A stretch of 64,000 nucleotides of DNA, taken from positions 40,394 to 104,393 of IMG/VR virus record IMGVR_UViG_3300047272_000250; one strand, written 5' to 3'. A program made the position numbers and the translations under genes. The notes under the pieces are model-generated. The model saw only the letters and a program-made list of their open reading frames with translations, was not told where the DNA came from and ran no database searches. Source of the stretch: a virus (taxonomy: Duplodnaviria > Caudoviricetes). This document shows positions 39,487 through 63,998 of this stretch, piece by piece. How positions within the stretch are numbered: position 1 is the first letter of the stretch; each line of letters starts with the position of its first letter.

Positions 39487-39737
39487 GGGATATATCGCTA
39501 TATGTTTGAAGAGCTTCAAGAAGCTCTTTGGCTATCCCGTCGAAATCAATAGTTCCGTTATTAAAGTATTTTCCAGATTGGATACACTTTTGTAGTGTAT
39601 TTGCAATGTATTTTTGTTTATCCATACATATCACCTCTAATACAGTATAACAAATAATCAGTATTAGTACAAATACTATATATGCCCTGTTTATTTATAT
39701 ATTATAGAAATGTTAATAAAATTTTAAATTTGACTAG

Positions 39738-39812
39738 TAGGGATACTTGGATTTGAACCAAGAGTAGATTGCATATAAGACAATTGCTTTAACCAGATTA
39801 AGCTATATCCCC
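39738..39812 (-). tRNA. tRNA-Ile(UAU)
   Basis: Cloverleaf GGGGATA/TATCCCT; anticodon arm ATTGT-CTTATAT-GCAAT; T arm CTTGG-TTCAAAT-CCAAG. Confidence 0.85.
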
Positions 39813-40330: not shown

Positions 40331-40377
40331 TCTACTATAAGAAATTAGCAAATAGCTAATAAAGAAAGGAATTCAAA

Positions 40378-41005: not shown

Positions 41006-41195
41006 AAGAATAGGAAATAAAATAAATGGAAATAACATTAGAACTATCTAAATGGGGCTTTGGTCTTTACTCTCCTTGGTTTGGTATTGACCTAACTTGG
41101 GGCTTTATTATCACCGCTGGAATTGTTACCCTCGCTGTTAAGTTTCTTAATAAGCGTGGTTTATATTTCTCTAATAAGTTTAGAAAGGTTAAGTA

Positions 41196-41402: not shown

Positions 41403-41430
41403 GCTGCGACGATCTCGCAGCTTTTTTATT
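41403..41430 (+). terminator. Intrinsic terminator
   Basis: GCTGCGA-CGATC-TCGCAGC-TTTTTT. Confidence 0.75.
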
Positions 41431-41509: not shown

Positions 41510-41518
41510 TGTGGATAA
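41510..41518 (-). promoter_or_regulatory. DnaA box
   Basis: TGTGGATAA, the reverse complement of TTATCCACA. Confidence 0.65.
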
Positions 41519-41530
41519 CCCCTGAAAAAA

Positions 41531-41546
41531 TGTGATGTGATTCACA
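41531..41546. promoter_or_regulatory. CRP-family site
   Basis: TGTGA-TGTGAT-TCACA. Confidence 0.7.
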
Positions 41547-41585
41547 TTTCAAAATGTCCGATTTGTGGCATTACTGGTCAGTAGA

Positions 41586-42502: not shown

Positions 42503-42733
42503 ACTATGTATAAAGATTAAAAAAGAAAGGTGGTCAAAATGACTACATTAACAGAAACTCTATTCAGCACTATCGTGCATGACTTTCACAATGGGGGAGT
42601 AAAATCCTCTTATGGGCTAGATGCCTACACACGCAAGGAAATCCTTGCTTATCTCTTACGCTCTAAAGGCTGTAATTGTATAAAATGTCTGTGATGTAAA
42701 TCACCCCGACACTTTGGGGAAAATCCCCCAAAA

Positions 42734-44830: not shown

Positions 44831-44858
44831 TAATATACCCGTTAAGAAAGGTCAACTC

Positions 44859-45864: not shown

Positions 45865-46014
45865 ATGACAACAACTCCAAAAATCGGGGAAACCTTCACA
45901 ACTGCTAAGTCTGGTGTATCAGGCAAGGTTGAGGAAGTAGTCAAGAACGCAAATGGCTCTTTGCGTGTTCGCCTCAATGTTGAGGGAACAGAACGCTGGA
46001 CAACAATCAAGTAA
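45865..46014 (+). CDS. 49-aa SH3/KOW-like protein
   Basis: MTTTPKIGETFTTAKSGVSGKVEEV...; GAAAGGA RBS; paralog of 46575-46757. Confidence 0.75.
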   Translation: MTTTPKIGETFTTAKSGVSGKVEEVVKNANGSLRVRLNVEGTERWTTIK

Positions 46015-46036
46015 GAAGGTTGGGGCTACTGGTAAA

Positions 46037-46058
46037 TGTCAGTAGCCCCTGCTACACT
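46037..46058 (+). promoter_or_regulatory. RecA-NDp/PafBC-type promoter 9
   Basis: TGTCAG-TAGCCCCTGC-TACACT. Confidence 0.8.
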
Positions 46059-46095
46059 TAAATATAACAACCCAAATAGAAAAGGAATAAATGCT

Positions 46096-46497
46096 ATGGC
46101 AAGAGCAATCTCAGTAAAGGTGGCAACACCAAAGGTAATCAAGGCTTTGGAAGCAAAGTTGGCAGATAGCAAGAGCGCAATCACCAACAATGAAAAGAAG
46201 CGTAAGGAATACGAGAAAACAGAAAAGGCTTGGGCTAAGGAAGTTGCAGACCTAGTATTCAAGCACATCTCAAAGGCAGAAGTTTCTGCACATGAGAACT
46301 ATCGTAATGAACTCAATGTAAATCTCACACTTCCAGCAGGAACAATCAAGTTGCCTGAGAAGCCTTCTATCGAACTTGAAAATGAACTTGGTCGCTATGA
46401 AGTTCAGGAAATCGAGAACGCAATTCGTATTCTCAAAATGACAGATGAGGACACAGTTAATGCCTCAACTTTCAAGTCAATCGCACAATATCTATAA
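46096..46497 (+). CDS. Hypothetical coiled-coil early protein (start MARAISVK)
   Basis: AAAGGA RBS before 46096; the track start lies inside the promoter. Confidence 0.75.
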   Translation: MARAISVKVATPKVIKALEAKLADSKSAITNNEKKRKEYEKTEKAWAKEVADLVFKHISKAEVSAHENYRNELNVNLTLPAGTIKLPEKPSIELENELGRYEVQEIENAIRILKMTDEDTVNASTFKSIAQYL

Positions 46498-46574
46498 TTC
46501 CCAATAGGGAACTCAACCTGAGCAAGTTGGAAAACTGCTCAACCAACCCACATAAAGAAAAGGAAAATAAATAA

Positions 46575-46757
46575 ATGGCACCAATTACAAATACAACAAC
46601 AGGTCGTTTCTATAAGAAGGGCGACACTTTCACAACAGGTAAGTCAGGAATTACTGGCGCAATCACAGAAATTATTTCTGTCCGTCCTAATCTAACTAAG
46701 TTAGGTTTGCAAACAGAAAATGGTTTGCGTTGGGCTATGGTAAAAATCGGCGCATAA
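46575..46757 (+). CDS. Small SH3/KOW-like protein
   Basis: GDTFTTGKSGITGAITEI; paralog of 45865-46014. Confidence 0.75.
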   Translation: MAPITNTTTGRFYKKGDTFTTGKSGITGAITEIISVRPNLTKLGLQTENGLRWAMVKIGA

Positions 46758-46760
46758 CTT

Positions 46761-46849
46761 TCATCGGGGGATGAATAACTACACGCAACACTAAGTGTAG
46801 TTGGGAGTCTAGGTTACCTTTCTTTCCTAGGCTCCCGCAAACCCGATGA
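46761..46849 (+). ncRNA. Candidate three-way-junction RNA with anti-Shine-Dalgarno loop
   Basis: Three stems of 8, 8 and 11 bp; loop TTACCTTTCTTT. Confidence 0.55.
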
Positions 46850-46856
46850 TCGTAGC

Positions 46857-46877
46857 TTATCCACAAAGTTATCCACA
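46857..46877 (+). promoter_or_regulatory. DnaA box pair
   Basis: TTATCCACA-aag-TTATCCACA. Confidence 0.72.
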
Positions 46878-46953
46878 GGCGCCCTGGGTCGCAAATTCGG
46901 ACATTTACGACATTAAGGAAAAATGCCTGAGATTGCCAGAATAATTAGACAGA

Positions 46954-46975
46954 TGTCACCCCAGTCTGCTAGACT
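46954..46975 (+). promoter_or_regulatory. RecA-NDp/PafBC-type promoter 10
   Basis: TGTCAC-CCCAGTCTGC-TAGACT. Confidence 0.75.
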
Positions 46976-47005: not shown

Positions 47006-48019
47006 ATGGCTCACAACCTAGAAGAACAAAATGGTCAAGTTGCTTTTGCATTACGTGGAAAGCCTGCTTGGCACAATCTCGCTAACAAAATTTTCGGCGA
47101 CGAAGAAATTGTTACAACACAGTCAATGCTTTCAGAAGCAAAACTTTCTAATTGGAATGTCCGCTTAGAAGCAATGGCAGACCACACGCCTGAATCTTAT
47201 CGTGATTCATCTGGCGCTCAATTAGTTCTTCGCACAAATCCATTTGACAATGGCACTGACGTGCTTTCTGTTGTCGGTTCTCGATACAAGGTAGTGCAGA
47301 ATGAAGAATTGTTTGCGTTTGCAGATAACATTCTTGACGGCGACGAATCTTGCAAGTGGGAATCTGCGGGTTCTCTAAAGAAGGGCAAAGTTGTATTCGG
47401 CTCTCTTACAGTTCCCCGCACAATGGTTCTTGACCCACAAGGTGCTAACGATGAGACAAAACTCTATCTAATCGTTTGGACATCACACGATGGTTCTGTT
47501 GCTGTTCAGGCTGCGATTACACCTGTTCGTGTAGTTTGCCAAAACACCCTTAACCTTGCAATGCGTAATGCAAAGCAATCTTTCAAGATTCGCCACACAC
47601 AGACAGCAGAAGGCAAAATTGTTGCTGCTCGTGAGGCTCTTGGTTTGACTTTCGCTTATGCTGATGAGTTTGAGAAGGAAATGCAAGCCCTTTTCAATGC
47701 GAAGATTACTGACAAGAAGTTTTCGCAAATCATCAACACACTTTACCCAAAGCCTGAGAAGGATTCTAAGGGTTCTCTAAAGAAGTGGGAGAACAAGGTT
47801 GTTCTCATTGACGAGTTGTATCACAACTCACCAACTAACGCTAACATCAAGGGCACAGCGTGGGGTGCGCTTAACGCTATGACTGAGCGCCTTGATTACT
47901 ATCGCACAGCCCGCACAGGTAATGGCGAATCTCTTATGTCTTCTGCTTCTGGTTTTGACCCAGTAATTACAGCAGAAAAAAATAAGTTAGCAAAACAAAT
48001 CTTGGCTCTGGCTAAGTAA
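47006..48019 (+). CDS. DUF932-family protein
   Basis: MAHNLE..PAWH, YKVVQNEELF, SHDGS, TPVRVVCQNTL, GTAWGALNAMTE. Confidence 0.85.
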   Translation: MAHNLEEQNGQVAFALRGKPAWHNLANKIFGDEEIVTTQSMLSEAKLSNWNVRLEAMADHTPESYRDSSGAQLVLRTNPFDNGTDVLSVVGSRYKVVQNEELFAFADNILDGDESCKWESAGSLKKGKVVFGSLTVPRTMVLDPQGANDETKLYLIVWTSHDGSVAVQAAITPVRVVCQNTLNLAMRNAKQSFKIRHTQTAEGKIVAAREALGLTFAYADEFEKEMQALFNAKITDKKFSQIINTLYPKPEKDSKGSLKKWENKVVLIDELYHNSPTNANIKGTAWGALNAMTERLDYYRTARTGNGESLMSSASGFDPVITAEKNKLAKQILALAK

Positions 48020-48025
48020 TAGGAG

Positions 48026-48050
48026 AGGGGGGCGAAAGCCCCCCTTTTTT
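48026..48050 (+). terminator. Intrinsic terminator
   Basis: AGGGGGGC-GAAA-GCCCCCCT-TTTTT. Confidence 0.85.
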
Positions 48051-48100
48051 ATTTGATCATTTTTTGATTTGACAAATCCAGCTTGATCGGGATGGGTCGC

Positions 48101-48116: not shown

Positions 48117-48153
48117 TTAAGTACGATAAGAAAAATCCCCCAGGATTTGTGGA

Positions 48154-48175
48154 TGTCAGTCGTTTTTGCTATAGT
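48154..48175 (+). promoter_or_regulatory. RecA-NDp/PafBC-type promoter 11 (leaderless whiB)
   Basis: TGTCAG-TCGTTTTTGC-TATAGT-N6-ATG. Confidence 0.8.
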
Positions 48176-48181
48176 TAATGT

Positions 48182-48397
48182 ATGACAGAAGAAAACCATT
48201 GGCAGTTTAAAGTAGCATGTGCTCCACAGGATTTTGATTTATTCTTTAGCAACGCAAAAGGTAAGCGGGCTCAGGCATTAGCCATATGTGGTAAATGCCC
48301 AGTCTCAAATGAATGTTTAAACCATGCGATAGAGAATAATGTAGAGCACGGGATATTCGGAGGAAAGACACCTGAACAGAGAAGGAAGATGAAATGA
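48182..48397 (+). CDS. whiB: WhiB-family transcription factor
   Basis: W...AC...FF...ICGKCPV..EC..A...GIFGG.T..QR. Confidence 0.92.
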   Translation: MTEENHWQFKVACAPQDFDLFFSNAKGKRAQALAICGKCPVSNECLNHAIENNVEHGIFGGKTPEQRRKMK

Positions 48398-57651: not shown

Positions 57652-57696
57652 ATAACTATCTTACACCTATTCTCAAGTAATTTCAATGGAATTTCG

Positions 57697-57767
57697 CAGA
57701 GTCTCTAGGAGTCGAACCTAGGCTTACCGCTTTGGAGACGGTAGTGCTTCCGTAACACTTAGACCCT
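57697..57767 (-). tRNA. tRNA-Trp(CCA)
   Basis: Anticodon arm ACCGT-CTCCAAA-GCGGT; T arm CTAGG-TTCGACT-CCTAG. Confidence 0.88.
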
Positions 57768-57897
57768 AAGTGATTAATAAGTCTACGAGCAGACTAACTT
57801 ATTAATCGTGATATATGAGGATTTACTATCGCCCGTTGTCCTCCAGTTGTCCCCGTCGGGAGTCAGTCTATACACCTGCAACTCAACCTTAATATCG

Positions 57898-57971
57898 TGC
57901 ATCAGGTAGGACTCGAACCTACAACCATTAGTTCCTAAGACTAACGCCTCTACCAGTTGGGCTACTGACGC
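57898..57971 (-). tRNA. tRNA-Leu(UAG) with short variable loop
   Basis: Anticodon arm TTAGT-CTTAGGA-ACTAA; T arm GTAGG-TTCGAGT-CCTAC. Confidence 0.88.
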
Positions 57972-57974
57972 AAT

Positions 57975-58101
57975 GCCAGCCACGGCTTTGGTTCTTAACC
58001 TAAACCACCTGCTGGCTGTTATACCTAGTCACGACCACAGAGCCTGTCCATGAGCCTGAACACCTTCTCAAGATGCAGGTGACGCCTATTCGGTATAACA
58101 G
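57975..58101 (-). ncRNA. Candidate structured RNA within the tRNA cluster
   Basis: 10-bp closing stem CTGTTATACC/GGTATAACAG, nested stems, own -10 TATACT immediately upstream. Confidence 0.5.
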
Positions 58102-58136
58102 ATCTTAGTATAGATTGTTCAGACCTATACTTCGAG

Positions 58137-58207
58137 AGCGGATGATGAGAATCGAACTCACCCCTTCTGCTTGGAAGGCAGAGGCACTACCAATATGCAA
58201 CATCCGC
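58137..58207 (-). tRNA. tRNA-Gly(UCC)
   Basis: GCGGATG/CATCCGC acceptor stem; TCTGC-CTTCCAA-GCAGA. Confidence 0.92.
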
Positions 58208-58208
58208 A

Positions 58209-58430
58209 TTAATCTTTCATATTCATATGATCTTGGATAACCCAACGCTTATACATCTCTTGGTTATCTGACCCACGGTAAACCTGACCTGTCTCCATAT
58301 CAATAAGAATCCATTTATCTGGAACTCTTGTATGAATAGATAGGTCTATAATCTCGTCATGTACCTTGACTTCTTCTCCGTCAAGGAGTTGTCTAGTAGT
58401 CTTCGTCATCGACATCAAATGCATCGCCAA
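58209..58430 (-). CDS. Conserved phage hypothetical protein
   Basis: HTRVPDKWILIDMETGQVYRG. Confidence 0.65.
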   Translation of the reverse strand: MAMHLMSMTKTTRQLLDGEEVKVHDEIIDLSIHTRVPDKWILIDMETGQVYRGSDNQEMYKRWVIQDHMNMKD

Positions 58431-58689
58431 TGTTTTTTAATGACTCGTTAGTCAATATAATTGCATAGACAGCAGCAGCTGTGATGGCAGTAACAATTCC
58501 CCCAAGAACTGCAACTTTCTTCATCTTCATCGAACCTTCTTCCCTCTAACTATGACATCGGATCCATTTTTCCATGCCTGATAGTATCCATCTGACTTTA
58601 CTTTAAGCTCACCAAATAACTTAGCAAGCTTTAGATATCTGTAGGAAATGTAAAGGTTAGCGACGATTAGGTATCCTATAATGAAATTG

Positions 58690-58989
58690 CTACTCATTTG
58701 GTCTTCCTGCATCTTCCCAGAACTTTTCTCGTCCCATTGAATCCGTTTCTTTAATTCTATCAGACTCATAGGATGGTTGTCCATAGCCTTCTGAAAGTAA
58801 ATAATTTGACAAAAGTATTGCTGGAGGAATTGGGTCCTGTGTTGTACCTAAAGCAGCCAGAACTCCTTGAACTAAAGAAGCTAACTCATTTCCATAAATC
58901 TTATAGTGGCATGCCTTAGCAGCCTCTGCAATTATCATTCTTGGCTCAAATGGTGGTGGCAAAGGAATATCTGACATACTTTTATCCAA
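58690..58989 (-). CDS. Hypothetical protein
   Basis: Coupled to the thioredoxin gene. Confidence 0.55.
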   Translation of the reverse strand: MDKSMSDIPLPPPFEPRMIIAEAAKACHYKIYGNELASLVQGVLAALGTTQDPIPPAILLSNYLLSEGYGQPSYESDRIKETDSMGREKFWEDAGRPNE

Positions 58990-59278
58990 ACAGCTTCTTG
59001 ACTGCTACTAGTGGGATAGCCCCAACATTTCTACCAGACTGCTCTGATCCATTATAAGCAATTAAAGTAGGAACGCTTTTAACCTCAAACTCTTGTGCAA
59101 CACCTGGCTCTTCATCAACATCAATCTTAATATACTTAATTGTAGGGTCTTGAGCAATAAGCTCATCAATAACAGGTGCAAGACGCTTGCATGGACCACA
59201 CCATTCAGCAGTAAAATGTACTAATGTCTTGTCGTTTGAGGATAGACTTTGATTAATTTGTTGCTTGGTCAGCTTCAC
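58982..59278 (-). CDS. trxA: Thioredoxin
   Basis: FTAEWCGPCK, VKSVPTL. Confidence 0.93.
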   Translation of the reverse strand: MKLTKQQINQSLSSNDKTLVHFTAEWCGPCKRLAPVIDELIAQDPTIKYIKIDVDEEPGVAQEFEVKSVPTLIAYNGSEQSGRNVGAIPLVAVKKLFG

Positions 59279-59453
59279 TAAGTGCTTTCTCCATCTCTTC
59301 TCTGAATGTGCTTAGCACAAATCCCGCCACCAAGGCGCAGTAGGATAGCTTCTGATCGTGCTCAACAAGATCAAGGTCCTTACCTCCGTATAGCTTTTCA
59401 AAAAGCTTCTGGGCTACCGTTGCTGCAATAACATCTAAATCGTCGTTAGTCAT
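59253..59453 (-). CDS. Hypothetical protein
   Basis: Co-oriented ORF with GGAG RBS. Confidence 0.55.
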   Translation of the reverse strand: MTNDDLDVIAATVAQKLFEKLYGGKDLDLVEHDQKLSYCALVAGFVLSTFREEMEKALSEADQATN

Positions 59454-59609
59454 TCTTACTCCATTTCACTATCTGTTGTAGGTTCTTAATCTTTTCTTCT
59501 AACCTAATATCCATCTCTATCTTTTTTCCTTCATTCATACCCTCATAAACAGAGAGCAATTCTTCAATTGCATTTGTCAGGTTTGACATGTGCTTTAGTA
59601 TGTCTTCTC

Positions 59610-60146
59610 TCATAGCGAATGGTAAATAAACGGTGGCTCGACACCCATTGTGTACTCTGCAGAGGCTGCCAGAGCCTTTAGAAGGCGTGTTTTAGGCGTT
59701 TTGATATGCTTTGTAGAGTGTAGGCTGCCTAAAGCATACTCTGAACCGCTACCGATAGAGAAGTAATTATCTTTGTACTCACCCATTTGGAAGTCGGTGT
59801 CCATGACAAAGATTCGTCCTTGAACACCAATGATTAGGTCAGCAATGTTTGTACTCTTCTCGTCAGATTCTAGAATAAACTTATTCTTATCTAAACAGTT
59901 TTGCACAGCTTCAACAAAGTCAATGCACATGATTCTCTCAAGATCCTTTTTAATCGGACGTGGTGGAATAAGATCATGCTTTAGAATTTGTCCCATTCTA
60001 AAACTGTTAGAGAATCCAATTAGATATTCATCAACAACAAATATCTTTGAATCTTTTCTCTTATGTACACTGTTTGAATCACTAGCAGCTGAATCTGCTG
60101 CCATATGAACTTTGCCGTTTTGGACTAACCCAACAATACAAGTCAT
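59610..60146 (-). CDS. HslV/proteasome-beta-like Ntn protease
   Basis: N-terminal MTCIVG..MAADS, KIF, SIGSGSEYALG. Confidence 0.82.
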   Translation of the reverse strand: MTCIVGLVQNGKVHMAADSAASDSNSVHKRKDSKIFVVDEYLIGFSNSFRMGQILKHDLIPPRPIKKDLERIMCIDFVEAVQNCLDKNKFILESDEKSTNIADLIIGVQGRIFVMDTDFQMGEYKDNYFSIGSGSEYALGSLHSTKHIKTPKTRLLKALAASAEYTMGVEPPFIYHSL

Positions 60147-60245
60147 TTCTGAACCCTTCCTGGTCTCATATAATAATACCCTATTTTTTGGTTCAGGTCA
60201 ACATTCTTGATATAATTGGGTATAACTAAATAGGGAGAGATTATA

Positions 60246-60593
60246 TTGTCAACTGACGCAACAATAACAGGCTTGATAGGCTTAATTGGCATCTTCCTAA
60301 CCTGGGTTTTGGCTAAGCCTAAGCAAAAGGCTGAGGTCACAGGCGTAATTTCAGAAGCTGCTAGCACATCTGTAGATACACTTCTTCGTGTAATGGAAGA
60401 GCTTAAGCTTGCTATGGATGATATCAAGGACACTAATGAGCTCCTAAAGTCCGAAGTTGATAAGCTTGTTGAAGAAAATATTCATCTTCAGGGTCAGATC
60501 AATGAACTTCATATACAAAACGAAAAGCTCTTGGCAGAGAATGTCAAGCTTCGTAAAGAAATCCATAAGATCACTTCTAATCTTTCTAAATAA
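60246..60593 (+). CDS. Membrane-anchored coiled-coil protein
   Basis: N-terminal hydrophobic helix, long heptad repeat; own promoter and GGAG RBS. Confidence 0.65.
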   Translation: MSTDATITGLIGLIGIFLTWVLAKPKQKAEVTGVISEAASTSVDTLLRVMEELKLAMDDIKDTNELLKSEVDKLVEENIHLQGQINELHIQNEKLLAENVKLRKEIHKITSNLSK

Positions 60594-60813
60594 TAATTTC
60601 GTTGGCGGTAATATCTTTACCGTGATATCTACGCTTAAGTATGTAGTCTCTTACCTTCTCGGATCCAAATTGGCGTCCTGCTAGAATAATTGACCAGCGT
60701 GGCTCATACTTTCCTTCAATACAAGCATCACACATAATTAAGTTAATATCGAATAGGTTAGACTTGACTGGTGTCAGTCTATGTTTTTGTTTACCACAAG
60801 AGTAACAAAGCAC
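60586..60813 (-). CDS. Zn-finger hypothetical protein
   Basis: CYSC...CDAC..EPRW. Confidence 0.65.
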   Translation of the reverse strand: MLCYSCGKQKHRLTPVKSNLFDINLIMCDACIEGKYEPRWSIILAGRQFGSEKVRDYILKRRYHGKDITANEIII

Positions 60814-61002
60814 TTAGTTCTCCTCTTCCCAAGGGTCTGGGTATTTAATTTCTTCGACTATATCAAATTCATCGTTCTCAAGATATGTCTCGAAAACTGT
60901 TTTATCTTTTATATATCTTACCATAGATACATGGGCTCCGTATGTGATTACTTCACCATGAACTTCTTCTGAGTGTATCCAGATCTTATCTCCACTGCTC
61001 AT
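60814..61002 (-). CDS. Hypothetical protein
   Basis: Coupled chain. Confidence 0.6.
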   Translation of the reverse strand: MSSGDKIWIHSEEVHGEVITYGAHVSMVRYIKDKTVFETYLENDEFDIVEEIKYPDPWEEEN

Positions 61003-61247
61003 TTCCCCGCCAGCCCTTCTAGGTCACATGGGACACCAAAAGATTCTACGATCTTGCGTAGCATGTTTAGGTATTCCATTATTGATATATGTTGCATATC
61101 GCTAAATTCTGCTATATTCTCCTCGTATACTCTTAAACTAAGCATACCTGGACGTTCTACAACAGAAACTTTTAGGTTCGGGTAAGGTGATTTAATTGAC
61201 TTAATAGCCTGAGCTATCTGAGTACTATATAGTTTTGTAGACACCAA
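60999..61247 (-). CDS. Hypothetical protein
   Basis: Coupled to whiB. Confidence 0.6.
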   Translation of the reverse strand: MVSTKLYSTQIAQAIKSIKSPYPNLKVSVVERPGMLSLRVYEENIAEFSDMQHISIMEYLNMLRKIVESFGVPCDLEGLAGK

Positions 61248-61548
61248 GAGTCTCCAACATTACTCGCCAATCTTCCTGAGATTTATGCATGTTTCTTGAT
61301 CGATCTACTTTTCCATTAGTCAAGTAAATTCCTCCCCATACACCAACCTCGCTACCATCAATACCTGCCTTGTGGCAGTATTTAATTACTGGGCATGATA
61401 AGCACATAGAATCAATTGTCTGTGCATGCACAGCATCTTCTTCATACTTATCAAAGAAATAATCTGTAGGCATACCATTGCAAGCTGCAAGGTCCTGCCA
61501 TCTGAAACTATTTTTATCTAGACCTAGTTTATCTAGTATTTCGGACAC
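61225..61548 (-). CDS. whiB: WhiB-family transcription factor
   Basis: WQDLAAC...FF...CLSCPV..C...GVWGG. Confidence 0.9.
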   Translation of the reverse strand: MSEILDKLGLDKNSFRWQDLAACNGMPTDYFFDKYEEDAVHAQTIDSMCLSCPVIKYCHKAGIDGSEVGVWGGIYLTNGKVDRSRNMHKSQEDWRVMLETLGVYKTI

Positions 61549-61786
61549 TAGAAGGTACCTTCCATAAGCCGCTGTTGTTTACAACAACACGCTTAGCAGT
61601 ACCCCATTGACCTTTATGGAACTTTCCATTTTTCTTAGACCAACCGCTTGGGTTATAAGTCCAGATAATTAAATCGTAGTTATCCCACCATACATTAGGG
61701 GTTTTTGATGCGTAGGATTCAGCCTTTGCTAGATCCATCATTGTGAATTTGAAGTCAGACATTAGTCTCCCTGGACAATTTATCAA
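61529..61786 (-). CDS. Conserved phage hypothetical protein
   Basis: WWDNYD...G.F..GQWG...GLWKVP. Confidence 0.6.
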   Translation of the reverse strand: MINCPGRLMSDFKFTMMDLAKAESYASKTPNVWWDNYDLIIWTYNPSGWSKKNGKFHKGQWGTAKRVVVNNSGLWKVPSSVRNTR

Positions 61787-61949
61787 AGCTAGAGTCCTTC
61801 TCCAGCTTAGCTCTTTCTCGTCTTTCTCTACTTAACATTATGTTGGCAATAACATCAAGCGTTCTGCTAATAACGCTTAACTCAGTTAAGATGCCTTGTA
61901 ATATTTTCTTCATATTAAATATAATGATACCAAAAGTATATAGTACTTG

Positions 61950-62324
61950 TCAAGAGTTTTTATGCTCTAAAACAGGTATATTATTCTTCTGTGCTGTCTC
62001 ACGGATCTTGGCTGTCTTAAAGTCCCGACCCTTATTGAATACAACTAAAATGTTAGGTGACTGGTCCAGGGCTTTTCTGATTCTCTCATCAAAGTCTGAA
62101 CTCTTAGCAGGGATAAATTCAGAGACTTTAAACCCTTTTCCAGATAGGAATGTCTTTGTCTTAGCAAAGTACGATCCAGCTAATTGCTCTGCGCCTTCTC
62201 TATCTAAATGAATAAAGGTAATATCTTTATCTTCTTTATCCATCTCTTGAATGAGAAGTGTAATCATTCTAGCAATGACCATTGGATCATCCCAATCCTG
62301 GGACCCAGTTACCCACAATTTCAT
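61950..62324 (-). CDS. YspA/SLOG-like protein
   Basis: LWVTGSQDW...GAEQLA...VVF...NIPV. Confidence 0.6.
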   Translation of the reverse strand: MKLWVTGSQDWDDPMVIARMITLLIQEMDKEDKDITFIHLDREGAEQLAGSYFAKTKTFLSGKGFKVSEFIPAKSSDFDERIRKALDQSPNILVVFNKGRDFKTAKIRETAQKNNIPVLEHKNS

Positions 62325-62332
62325 GTTATGCC

Positions 62333-63055
62333 TTAAGCAGTTGGTTCTGTAGGTGCAGCAGCTTCTGGTGTCTCTACAGCTGGCGCTGCAACTTCTGCAA
62401 CTGGTTCTGCTGGTGCCTCAGCAACTGGTGCTGGTGCTTCTACTGCAGGCTCTACTGGCGCTGCTGGTGCTTCTGCTACAGGTGCAGGTGTCTCTACTAC
62501 AGGAGCAGGAGTTTCAGCAACTGGTGCTGGAGTCTCTACTACTGGTGCAGGTGTCTCTGCTACTGGAGCTGGTGCTTCTGTAACTACTGGAGCTTCTACT
62601 ACTGGCTCTAGTGGTTCATCAAGCTCTTCTTCTAGATCAAGCGCAACTTCTTCATTAGAAGCTTGTGCCTGCTCTCTTCCTAGTTGTCCTAGGAAAGATC
62701 CATCCCAAATGGAAGTGCTCATCTTACTCATCCTCTTATTCTTAATAGATGCTGCTTTCTGACGAGACCAGGAATATCCTGAGTCTCCACCCCAAAGATC
62801 CCAGGCTACACGCCCAGGGCTTGGGAAACCTTCTTCACCAGAATTAAATCCAGTGGCTTTCTTATCAACTTCGTGTCTAGAGAAGAATGAATACATACGC
62901 ATTACTGTACTCTCGCTAAGAGATTCACCATTCACTATCTGATTTGCACGAGTCAAACCTATTCTTGTTCCTCCACGCTTTCCCTCTTTCTTCCATGCTA
63001 GGGCACGTCGAGCAGCGGACTTCATTCCGCTAGTTGGTGAGTATCCTTCAGCCAA
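62333..63055 (-). CDS. Probable head-associated protein with Pro/Ala/Glu repeat tail
   Basis: RMYSFFSRH...PSPGRVAWDLWGGD domain; APV(A/V)E(T/A)P repeats. Confidence 0.65.
   Translation of the reverse strand: MAEGYSPTSGMKSAARRALAWKKEGKRGGTRIGLTRANQIVNGESLSESTVMRMYSFFSRHEVDKKATGFNSGEEGFPSPGRVAWDLWGGDSGYSWSRQKAASIKNKRMSKMSTSIWDGSFLGQLGREQAQASNEEVALDLEEELDEPLEPVVEAPVVTEAPAPVAETPAPVVETPAPVAETPAPVVETPAPVAEAPAAPVEPAVEAPAPVAEAPAEPVAEVAAPAVETPEAAAPTEPTA
62395..62605 (-). repeat. Degenerate 21-nt coding tandem repeat (APVVETP/APVAETP)
   Basis: Repeated actgg(t/a)gc(t/a)gg... units visible in both DNA and protein. Confidence 0.8.
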
Positions 63056-63191
63056 TTTCTATCTCCTTCTCCAAACGATTTATAGGTGCATGTCCGTAAC
63101 ATAGAAAAAACGGAGTCCCATCCTTGAATGTTGAATATTCAATTAGGTACTCTGTTTTGCCACAGCTTAAGCACTCTTGCATATAATTATA

Positions 63192-63515
63192 TCACTTTTC
63201 TTCAAGTCCGTCTAGGTTATAAAAGCCCATCTCTAACAAGGCCTCTTCCCCCTCTGGACTGATATTAAATATAGCCTCTAGGTTCTCGTTATACTGCATC
63301 TCCACTAGACCCTTTTCATATAGCTCAAGCAATGAAGATTCTAGGTCCTCATGCATAACTTCAAGCATCTCTGGGCAGTATTCCTTCATCTTCTCTGAGT
63401 TTACCTTGAACATGATCTCCCCGTCACTAGCAACCCCGTCGACCTCTAGGGCTCCAACTTCTAGAAGATATTCGAATAACTCATTCTCTTCTTCATTACT
63501 TAGTTCTTCTGACAT
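63192..63515 (-). CDS. Acidic hypothetical protein
   Basis: GAAAGGA RBS; YLLEVGALEVDG...LYEKGLVE. Confidence 0.65.
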   Translation of the reverse strand: MSEELSNEEENELFEYLLEVGALEVDGVASDGEIMFKVNSEKMKEYCPEMLEVMHEDLESSLLELYEKGLVEMQYNENLEAIFNISPEGEEALLEMGFYNLDGLEEK

Positions 63516-63529
63516 GTAAATCCTTTCTG

Positions 63530-63601
63530 CGCCCCCGACTGGAGTCGAACCAGTGGCCTAAACATTAGAAGTGTTCCGCTCTTCCTCTGAGCTACGAAGG
63601 C
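63530..63601 (-). tRNA. tRNA-Arg(UCU)
   Basis: GAACA-CTTCTAA-TGTTT; T arm ACTGG-TTCGACT-CCAGT. Confidence 0.88.
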
Positions 63602-63606
63602 TTAGG

Positions 63607-63891
63607 TTATTCGACAAAGATGTCTACTAGGTTATTAGATCTTAGCCAATCAAATGTGGCCATTAGGTTTTCTCTTGAGTCGCAAGTTTCGCAACCATCA
63701 TATGGTCCGTATGGCTCAAAGCCTTCACGTACGTCTTCTTCGTCATATAAAAACATGGAGCACCCACGCATATGATCTTCAACAAATGTTTCTAGAGCTT
63801 TGGCTTGCTCCGTAGATAACTTAATCTCTTGCATTACTATGCTTTCTCTAGTAGTTATATTAAGTATAAGTATAAAAGAAGGGAAAGTCAA
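63607..63891 (-). CDS. Hypothetical protein (likely start MQEIK)
   Basis: Lies between tRNAs; DGCETC. Confidence 0.6.
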   Translation of the reverse strand: MTFPSFILILNITTRESIVMQEIKLSTEQAKALETFVEDHMRGCSMFLYDEEDVREGFEPYGPYDGCETCDSRENLMATFDWLRSNNLVDIFVE

Positions 63892-63925
63892 GAGCGGTGT
63901 GTGGTGGAACTCTTGACCCTCCCAG

Positions 63926-63998
63926 CGATCTCAAAGGGAAATTGAACCCTTACTTCCACTTCGACAGAGTGGTGTGCGTACCTCTACACTATGAGACC
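63926..63998 (-). tRNA. tRNA-Asp(GUC)
   Basis: GGTCTCA/TGAGATC acceptor stem; CCACT-CTGTCGA-AGTGG; T loop is one base longer than usual. Confidence 0.82.

Follow-up and report, generated by a model that had tools for sequence, protein, structure and literature searches.

What is the role of a compact, strongly folded 89-nt element that stands between two transcription units in the early region of an uncultured phage? The element occupies positions 46761-46849 (plus strand) of the window, the whole 64-kb stretch of DNA analysed here, which forms the right-hand part of a 104,393-bp IMG/VR virus record with direct terminal repeats. A sequence-only reading had described it as a three-way-junction RNA, derived from the 3' end of a message, whose exposed loop is complementary to Shine-Dalgarno (SD) sequences and would occlude ribosome-binding sites (RBSs) of early phage or host mRNAs while sparing leaderless transcripts.

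The phage itself has a GC content of ~40%, and its window carries six tRNA genes (Ile-TAT, Trp, Leu-TAG, Gly-TCC, Arg-TCT and Asp), all on the minus strand, at positions 39737-39812 and 57696-63998. On the plus strand, ~50 small genes including GP88 (PF17338), DUF932 and a WhiB factor extend from 40.3 to 52.7 kb. The presence of WhiB and GP88, the distant DNA matches to Streptomyces phages (the only matches in a GenBank phage search, confined to the DUF932 gene) and an origin of the relatives almost entirely in lake metagenomes point to a phage of freshwater actinobacteria.

The early block is organised as a chain of short units, each of which closes with a hairpin that is followed by a cassette of boxes, palindrome and promoter; the unit-end hairpins at 41403 and 48018 are canonical T-tract terminators. 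The division into many short transcription units appears to be made by copies of a phage-specific promoter motif, ATGTCAG-N7-TGnTAnnnT, which occurs 12 times in the window against 0.68 expected, with 11 of the 12 copies on the plus strand of the early block between 40308 and 51172 (for example at 41585, 42480, 42733, 43682, 44808, 46036, 46953 and 48153). The palindromes are perfect TGTGA-N6-TCACA sequences of the CRP/GlxR-type consensus (six against 0.07 expected, four of them identical, TGTGATTTTTCTCACA), located on the plus strand at 41531, 43630, 44766, 45738, 48101 and 51107, each ~45-75 nt upstream of a promoter motif; such a palindrome also lies upstream of DUF932 in 63 of 113 distinct relatives and is missing from the window's own DUF932 cassette. 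The boxes, TTATCCACA, agree with the DnaA-box consensus and are found upstream of early promoters at 41510, 43602 and 43614 (minus strand) and directly behind the element at 46857-46877 (plus strand). The ATG of WhiB (48182) stands only 7 nt past the -10 box TATAGT of its promoter motif (48153-48184, plus strand) without an SD, and the WhiB mRNA is probably leaderless. Across the phage the favoured leader sequences are AAGGA, GAAAGG and AGGAG, preferences that fit an actinobacterial 16S rRNA tail ending CCUCCUUUCU, a tail that is assumed for the host.

The MFE fold of positions 46755-46860 consists of exactly the three helices that had been proposed, each at its proposed place (-43.1 kcal/mol, z -6.53, with none of 200 shuffles as good). 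The closing stem P1 pairs TCATCGGG (46761-46768) with CCCGATGA (46842-46849). P2 is an 8-bp hairpin (46777-46802, pairing 46777-46784 with 46795-46802) with a 10-nt loop, L2, at 46785-46794, and P3 is an 11-bp hairpin (46803-46836, pairing 46803-46813 with 46826-46836) that includes one U46808.G46831 wobble and carries the 12-nt loop L3, TTACCTTTCTTT (46814-46825), with its anti-SD-like CCUUUCU. Between the helices lie J1/2, GGATGAAT (46769-46776), and J3/1, GCAAA (46837-46841), so that the junction measures 8, 0 and 5 nt (GGAUGAAU, none and GCAAA); since no junction base separates P2 from P3, these two helices probably stack coaxially. The G-U pair had been said to favour the plus strand, and the minus strand does fold less well (-36.1 kcal/mol, z -4.21), with an A.C mismatch in place of the wobble. 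Across both strands of the whole 104,393-bp genome, the 100-nt segment holding the element (-41.7 against a genome mean of -18.4, sd 5.4) ranks third in stability among all 100-nt segments; the two ahead of it are a site in the genome's left-hand part and the canonical terminator that follows DUF932. The element is present in a single copy, and no second one was found in the genome. At its 5' end, UCAUC-GGGG-GAUGA (46761-46774, plus strand) could form a local 5-bp hairpin in competition with P1; its GAUGA (46770-46774) occurs twice in clade A of the variants described below (at 46770 and 46845), which makes a folding intermediate or a switch possible.

Searches of known RNA families, as had been proposed, returned no family for this fold. 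Rfam 15 at the gathering threshold reported only the six tRNAs elsewhere in the window, and with E up to 10 the element's top score came from SNORD46 (15.4 bits, cutoff 40 bits, E 2.7), a match at noise level. Similarly, neither ARAGORN nor a tRNA covariance model found a tRNA or tmRNA cloverleaf at the element. The hammerhead, the twister-sister and the purine riboswitch resemble it in arranging three helices around a junction within 70-100 nt, but junctions of 8, 0 and 5 nt misfit both the hammerhead core (7, 3, 1) and the purine core, in line with the Rfam result, and the element follows a gene and precedes the next promoter instead of occupying a 5' UTR. Two coding interpretations were also set aside: a mini-ORF inside the element (ATG 46771, 7 codons), whose frame is broken in variants with a 1-nt deletion, and a minus-strand ORF at 46735-46866 (43 aa, TTG start), which was treated as spurious.

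The element was found only in one species-level phage cluster, in which ~45 contigs provide 14 sequence variants that fall into two clades, A and B. Exact-protein look-ups of p60, the 60-aa ORF that precedes the element, yielded ~40 further element-bearing contigs from many lakes, and p60 is at least 93% identical in every element-bearing contig found. Exact-pattern scans of IMG/VR with the top of P3 and with P1/J12 recovered one near-identical contig only. Near-identical contigs excepted, the element is missing from 80 IMG/VR and 80 metagenome loci picked via the DUF932 protein (73-82% identity), and it is absent from five near-complete relatives. Phages with p60 75-95% identical lack it as well. 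Two covariance models (R1 and R2) run over the 160 DUF932 loci, 29 loci of more distant p60 homologues and the five near-complete relatives gave no match outside the cluster, although models built from a single cluster are weak for remote homologues and do not prove absence elsewhere.

Within the cluster, the 14 variants show that the element is under selection as a plus-strand RNA structure, given the wobble intermediates, a two-sided pair change, a paired deletion and a register shift of P1. The covariation model that the sequence-only reading had called for bears out the fold: in a 25-row alignment 98% of cells pair, against 31-40% with slid partners, and the covariation score of 0.052 against 0.017 is reached by only 1 of 500 shuffles. 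The P3 pair 46808/46831 exists as U.G (6), G.U (4), A-U (2) and U-A (1), and both sides of the P3 pair A46806/U46833 are deleted in clade B. In the same clade P1 has shifted its register, losing an outer C-G pair (the second pair of P1, G to C) and gaining an inner G-C pair through a change in J3/1, and clade B sequences on their own adopt this junction too (-38.9 to -44.1 kcal/mol, z -5.4 to -7.1). Variable columns make up 7 of the 54 paired ones, and nearly all of the changes preserve pairing; the P2 stem is invariant except for one mismatch variant. The unpaired parts differ from one another, J3/1 varying most (3 of 5 columns, five events or more), followed by L2 (3 of 10 columns; ACT, TCT or TA-), with J1/2, invariant but for a 1-nt G insertion in clade B, and L3 as the least variable. 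The element is also more conserved than its surroundings: within clade A it differs by 2-4% against 13-18% at fourfold-degenerate sites of the flanking genes (p 4e-4 or lower for 2/89), and between the clades by 13-14% against 29-40%, again a significant shortfall, and flanking non-coding DNA is 10-17% different in most comparisons.

The position of the element had been taken to indicate a 3'-derived RNA, and it does lie in the 3' UTR of p60 (46575-46757, plus strand), whose stop codon is 3 nt ahead of P1. The nearest promoter upstream is the motif ATGTCAG-N7-TGCTACACT (46036-46058, plus strand); no phage-type motif occurs between 46058 and 46953, and a generic sigma-70 scan found no promoter directly upstream of the element. 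From the 46036 motif we infer a unit that runs from a 153-aa ORF (p153) through p60 to the element. As the first ATG of the 153-aa ORF (46036) overlaps the promoter motif, the real start of p153 is probably the ATG at 46096. The p60 product is hydrophilic, belongs to no Pfam or PHROG family and has homologues in 47 clusters. Together with a 49-aa gene (p49) and the 138/153-aa gene it constitutes a module (45865-46757) that changes its location among relatives (loci L163-L176 and L201-L204): it can lie ahead of DUF932, between DUF932 and WhiB, or ahead of GP88. The p49 and p60 genes are paralogues with a common GxTFTTxKSGxxG. The p60 leader contains a small hairpin, CCTGAGCAAG..AACTGCTCAACC, at 46517-46545 (plus strand), and one half of it, AACTGCTCA(A/C)C, is conserved upstream of p60 in most relatives.

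On the other side, the next promoter cassette opens 8 nt after P1 with the two direct TTATCCACA boxes at 46857-46877. These are followed by the DUF932 promoter (46946-46975, plus strand; TAGACA, 18 nt and TAGACT with TG), a motif that is conserved in relatives, and by the DUF932 gene (47006-48019, plus strand) with its canonical T-tract terminator at 48018-48053. Boxes precede the DUF932 gene in 100 of 113 distinct relatives, the second box being either direct or inverted; one direct and one inverted box are present in 72 of the 113 and two direct boxes in 25 (relatives L003-L162), and 9-mers that are independent of orientation suggest a protein that binds as a monomer and not a hairpin in the RNA. 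In relatives the first box is adjoined by GCCCGCA..TGCGGGG, a small hairpin that covaries.

What relatives carry in place of the element is simpler. In more than 100 of them one or two plain GC hairpins stand ahead of the DUF932 cassette, the more distant ones have a simple hairpin, GGGGGCTAG...CTAGCCCCC, with a stem like P3 after p60, and where p60 is 88-95% identical the hairpins behind it are followed by T-tracts and are canonical terminators. On this comparison the three-way junction looks like a lineage-specific elaboration of a 3'-end hairpin. A different hairpin, CTTGGGGCGGG...CCCGCCCC, with a conserved loop of ~24 nt (TTTGAACTGTGTAATCATCTAGAT), recurs at loci L035, L091, L097, L114, L155 and L169 (for example L169:1690-1740), and its occurrence after different genes in different relatives suggests that it is mobile or has been recruited repeatedly between genes.

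Because the element fills the slot that terminator hairpins occupy in relatives, its position would support a cis-acting 3'-end element as much as a trans-acting small RNA (sRNA). The explanation that we favour, at about even confidence, is that it acts in cis as a 3'-end, stability or insulator structure for the p153-p60 message. Once RNA polymerase has passed the p60 stop codon, P2 and P3 would fold and stack, and closure of P1 would then complete a compact and very stable knot. Such a knot could fix the 3' end of the p60 message and protect it by blocking 3'-to-5' exonucleases, might also serve as a weak pause or termination signal that works without a U-tract, and would shield the next cassette, with its TTATCCACA boxes and DUF932 promoter, from read-through. 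A likely by-product would be a stable piece of ~90 nt that exposes a CU-rich loop, and any base-pairing role of the loop would be secondary and putative.

The statement that the element is not a simple terminator stands. Its P3, with 11 bp, provides the GC-rich stem-loop that an intrinsic terminator places at the 3' end of a unit, but the U run behind the stem is missing: P2, P3 and P1 are followed by GGGAG, GCAAAC and TCGTAGC, with no T-tract behind any helix, just as had been claimed. Since this defining feature was tested and is missing, the element is not a canonical terminator, and a terminator scan that picked up the T-tract sites at 41403 and 48018 did not list it. Efficient intrinsic termination is unlikely for the same reason, in a phage that has canonical T-tract terminators at those two sites. 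Hairpins without a U-tract, described as 'I-shaped', have been reported at 3' ends in actinobacteria. Like these and like intrinsic terminators, the element is a GC-rich structure right after a stop codon at the end of a unit, but its architecture comprises three helices, including a stem that closes the junction, and a large loop that is conserved; it has no U-tract and its terminating activity is putative. The lambda sib site and the T7 RNase III sites, which belong to phage retroregulation and processing, are further intercistronic or 3' structures without a U-tract and set the stability of the upstream message in early phage transcripts; a stacked P2-P3 would resemble them in offering ~19 bp of helix. 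They differ in being long, irregular single hairpins cut by RNase III, the element having no known cleavage site. Stabilisation alone leaves the additional P1 and P2, the near-invariant 12-nt loop and the 8-nt J1/2 unexplained, since a plain hairpin serves in relatives, and the top-ranked complementarity of L3 to RBSs hints at an additional function.

In all variants L3 reads TTACCTTTCTT followed by T or A. It is single-stranded in the MFE folds of both clades and resembles the actinobacterial 16S tail, its CCUUUCU being equal to what we take to be the last 7 nt of that rRNA, the host tail being assumed and not read. The pattern that had been named as a refutation, conserved stems with a variable loop, is not seen, as 11 of its 12 bases are invariant over the 14 variants and the sole change is that of the last base, T (U) to A, in clade B. 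This near-invariance does not, however, reach significance when L3 (1 of 12 columns variable) is compared with the remaining unpaired columns (6 of 15; p 0.09, range 0.09-0.22), and the probability of at most one change in L3 lies between 0.02 and 0.27 depending on the neutral rate assumed. The complementarity to GAAAGG-type RBSs that had been claimed is strong. A perfect complement of at least 7 nt of L3 is found in 14 of 168 translation-initiation regions, nine of the 14 inside the same early block, which ranks L3 first among 995 hairpin loops of the genome, albeit post hoc, the loop having been singled out beforehand by the sequence-only reading; among 3000 random genomic 12-mers, one matched this count. 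The four RBS matches quoted earlier are real and stand 8-9 nt ahead of start codons on the plus strand (42522-42531, AAAGAAAGGT, the best, together with 40361-40369, 44844-44852 and 41182-41189). Predicted duplexes of L3 with these sites range from -13.0 to -9.8 kcal/mol, about equal to those of the assumed 16S tail on the same sites, and six or seven of ~ten GAAAGG sites continue with T, which fits L3 and not the assumed tail.

These properties lend some support to a trans-acting sRNA, a promoterless ~90-nt species cut from the 3' UTR of p60, whose L3 would pair with GAAAGG-type SDs of early phage and perhaps host mRNAs, compete there with the 16S tail and thereby lower translation of its targets. 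On balance we consider this model unlikely. Besides the non-significant conservation of the loop, the change in clade B is not matched at the candidate targets 40361 and 42522; the GP88 leader TAAGAAAGGT is fully complementary to the clade B loop. The element is absent outside one cluster though relatives share the RBS types, anti-SD-like loops are not enriched in the relatives' hairpins (10 against 12 SD-like, of 1089), sponging many RBSs requires a high copy number, and CU-rich loops in general would match purine-rich RBSs and leaders. The related model of an SD sponge or competitor, in which the junction RNA with its 16S-tail-like loop acts on GAAAGG-type RBSs and thereby favours the translation of other messages, leaderless mRNAs like that of WhiB among them, would make the element a phage-encoded mimic of the anti-SD sequence; it seems to us improbable. 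A literature search for a phage anti-SD mimic or an actinophage non-coding RNA of such a kind found nothing relevant. An actinobacterial precedent for the trans-acting mode is s-SodF of Streptomyces, a demonstrated transcript of ~90 nt that is processed from a 3' UTR and covers an RBS through one 19-nt conserved target match (PMC3919588). The element shares with s-SodF its length, an origin in the 3' UTR of a protein-coding gene, the lack of a nearby promoter of its own, the RBS complementarity and the actinobacterial setting (PMC3919588), but differs in a seed of 7-10 nt that matches many RBSs generically and is predicted from sequence alone.

The loop could also act closer to home, by pairing with AAAGAAAAGG in the p60 leader (46554-46563, plus strand; 9 bp with one bulge) and keeping the p60 SD covered up to the moment of 3'-end trimming, in the manner of hok and aapA. 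In the hok (fbi) and aapA type I toxin mRNAs a distal anti-SD takes part in long-distance 5'-3' interactions (PMC6733600), and an anti-SD-like 3' end on the mRNA of a small gene could likewise mask its own SD here. A single co-change of loop and leader is consistent with this: U to A in L3 coincides with A to T at 46554 in all seven clade B loci, and all clade A loci have A with U. In addition, the leader reads AAGAAAAGGAAAA in element-bearing phages against CGAAAGGAAA in relatives without the element. Nevertheless, we regard such fold-back as very doubtful, as the co-change is a single event on a single branch (chance probability ~0.1-0.2), the predicted duplex is weak and bulged at -6.4 kcal/mol, of which the co-change is worth only ~0.6 kcal/mol, and the altered base has an alternative partner in the first base of the loop, a pairing that would lengthen P3. 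The hydrophilic p60 is unlike type I toxins and no antisense RNA partner is known, so that on product and duplex alike the type I toxin-like class was rejected. Recognition by a phage or host protein, with L3 and J1/2 serving as a decoy, for instance by imitating the 16S 3' tail and so titrating a factor or a tail-acting nuclease, would account for the identity of CCUUUCU with the presumed end of the 16S rRNA, for J1/2 and L3 being the least variable unpaired parts and for an elaboration that exceeds the needs of a stabiliser; with no candidate partner, an assumed host tail and weak conservation statistics, we see it as a long shot. To an element that works as DNA, such as a cruciform, a recombination boundary or part of an origin near the DnaA-like boxes, we give hardly any credence. 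The two adjoining TTATCCACA boxes and a gene order around p60 that is shuffled among relatives, with breakpoints at intergenic hairpins, would suit it, but the boxes are kept in more than 100 relatives that lack the element, and wobbles (G.U or U.G) occur in P3 of 10 of the 14 variants and in P1 of one, each of which would be an A.C mismatch in DNA or on the minus strand. These wobble pairs disfavour both a DNA cruciform and a minus-strand RNA.

If the cis-acting reading is true, the element would be an ordinary, lineage-specific way of ending and stabilising a phage early message, and it would illustrate how quickly 3' structures can be rebuilt, a single phage species having turned a simple hairpin into a three-way junction. 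Should the loop have a function, it would represent a rare phage RNA that targets RBSs generically, in a group, the uncultured freshwater actinophages, with almost no known RNA biology. In that case one loop and a few leaders may offer a handle on SD competition in actinobacteria, with their mixture of leaderless and leadered mRNAs.
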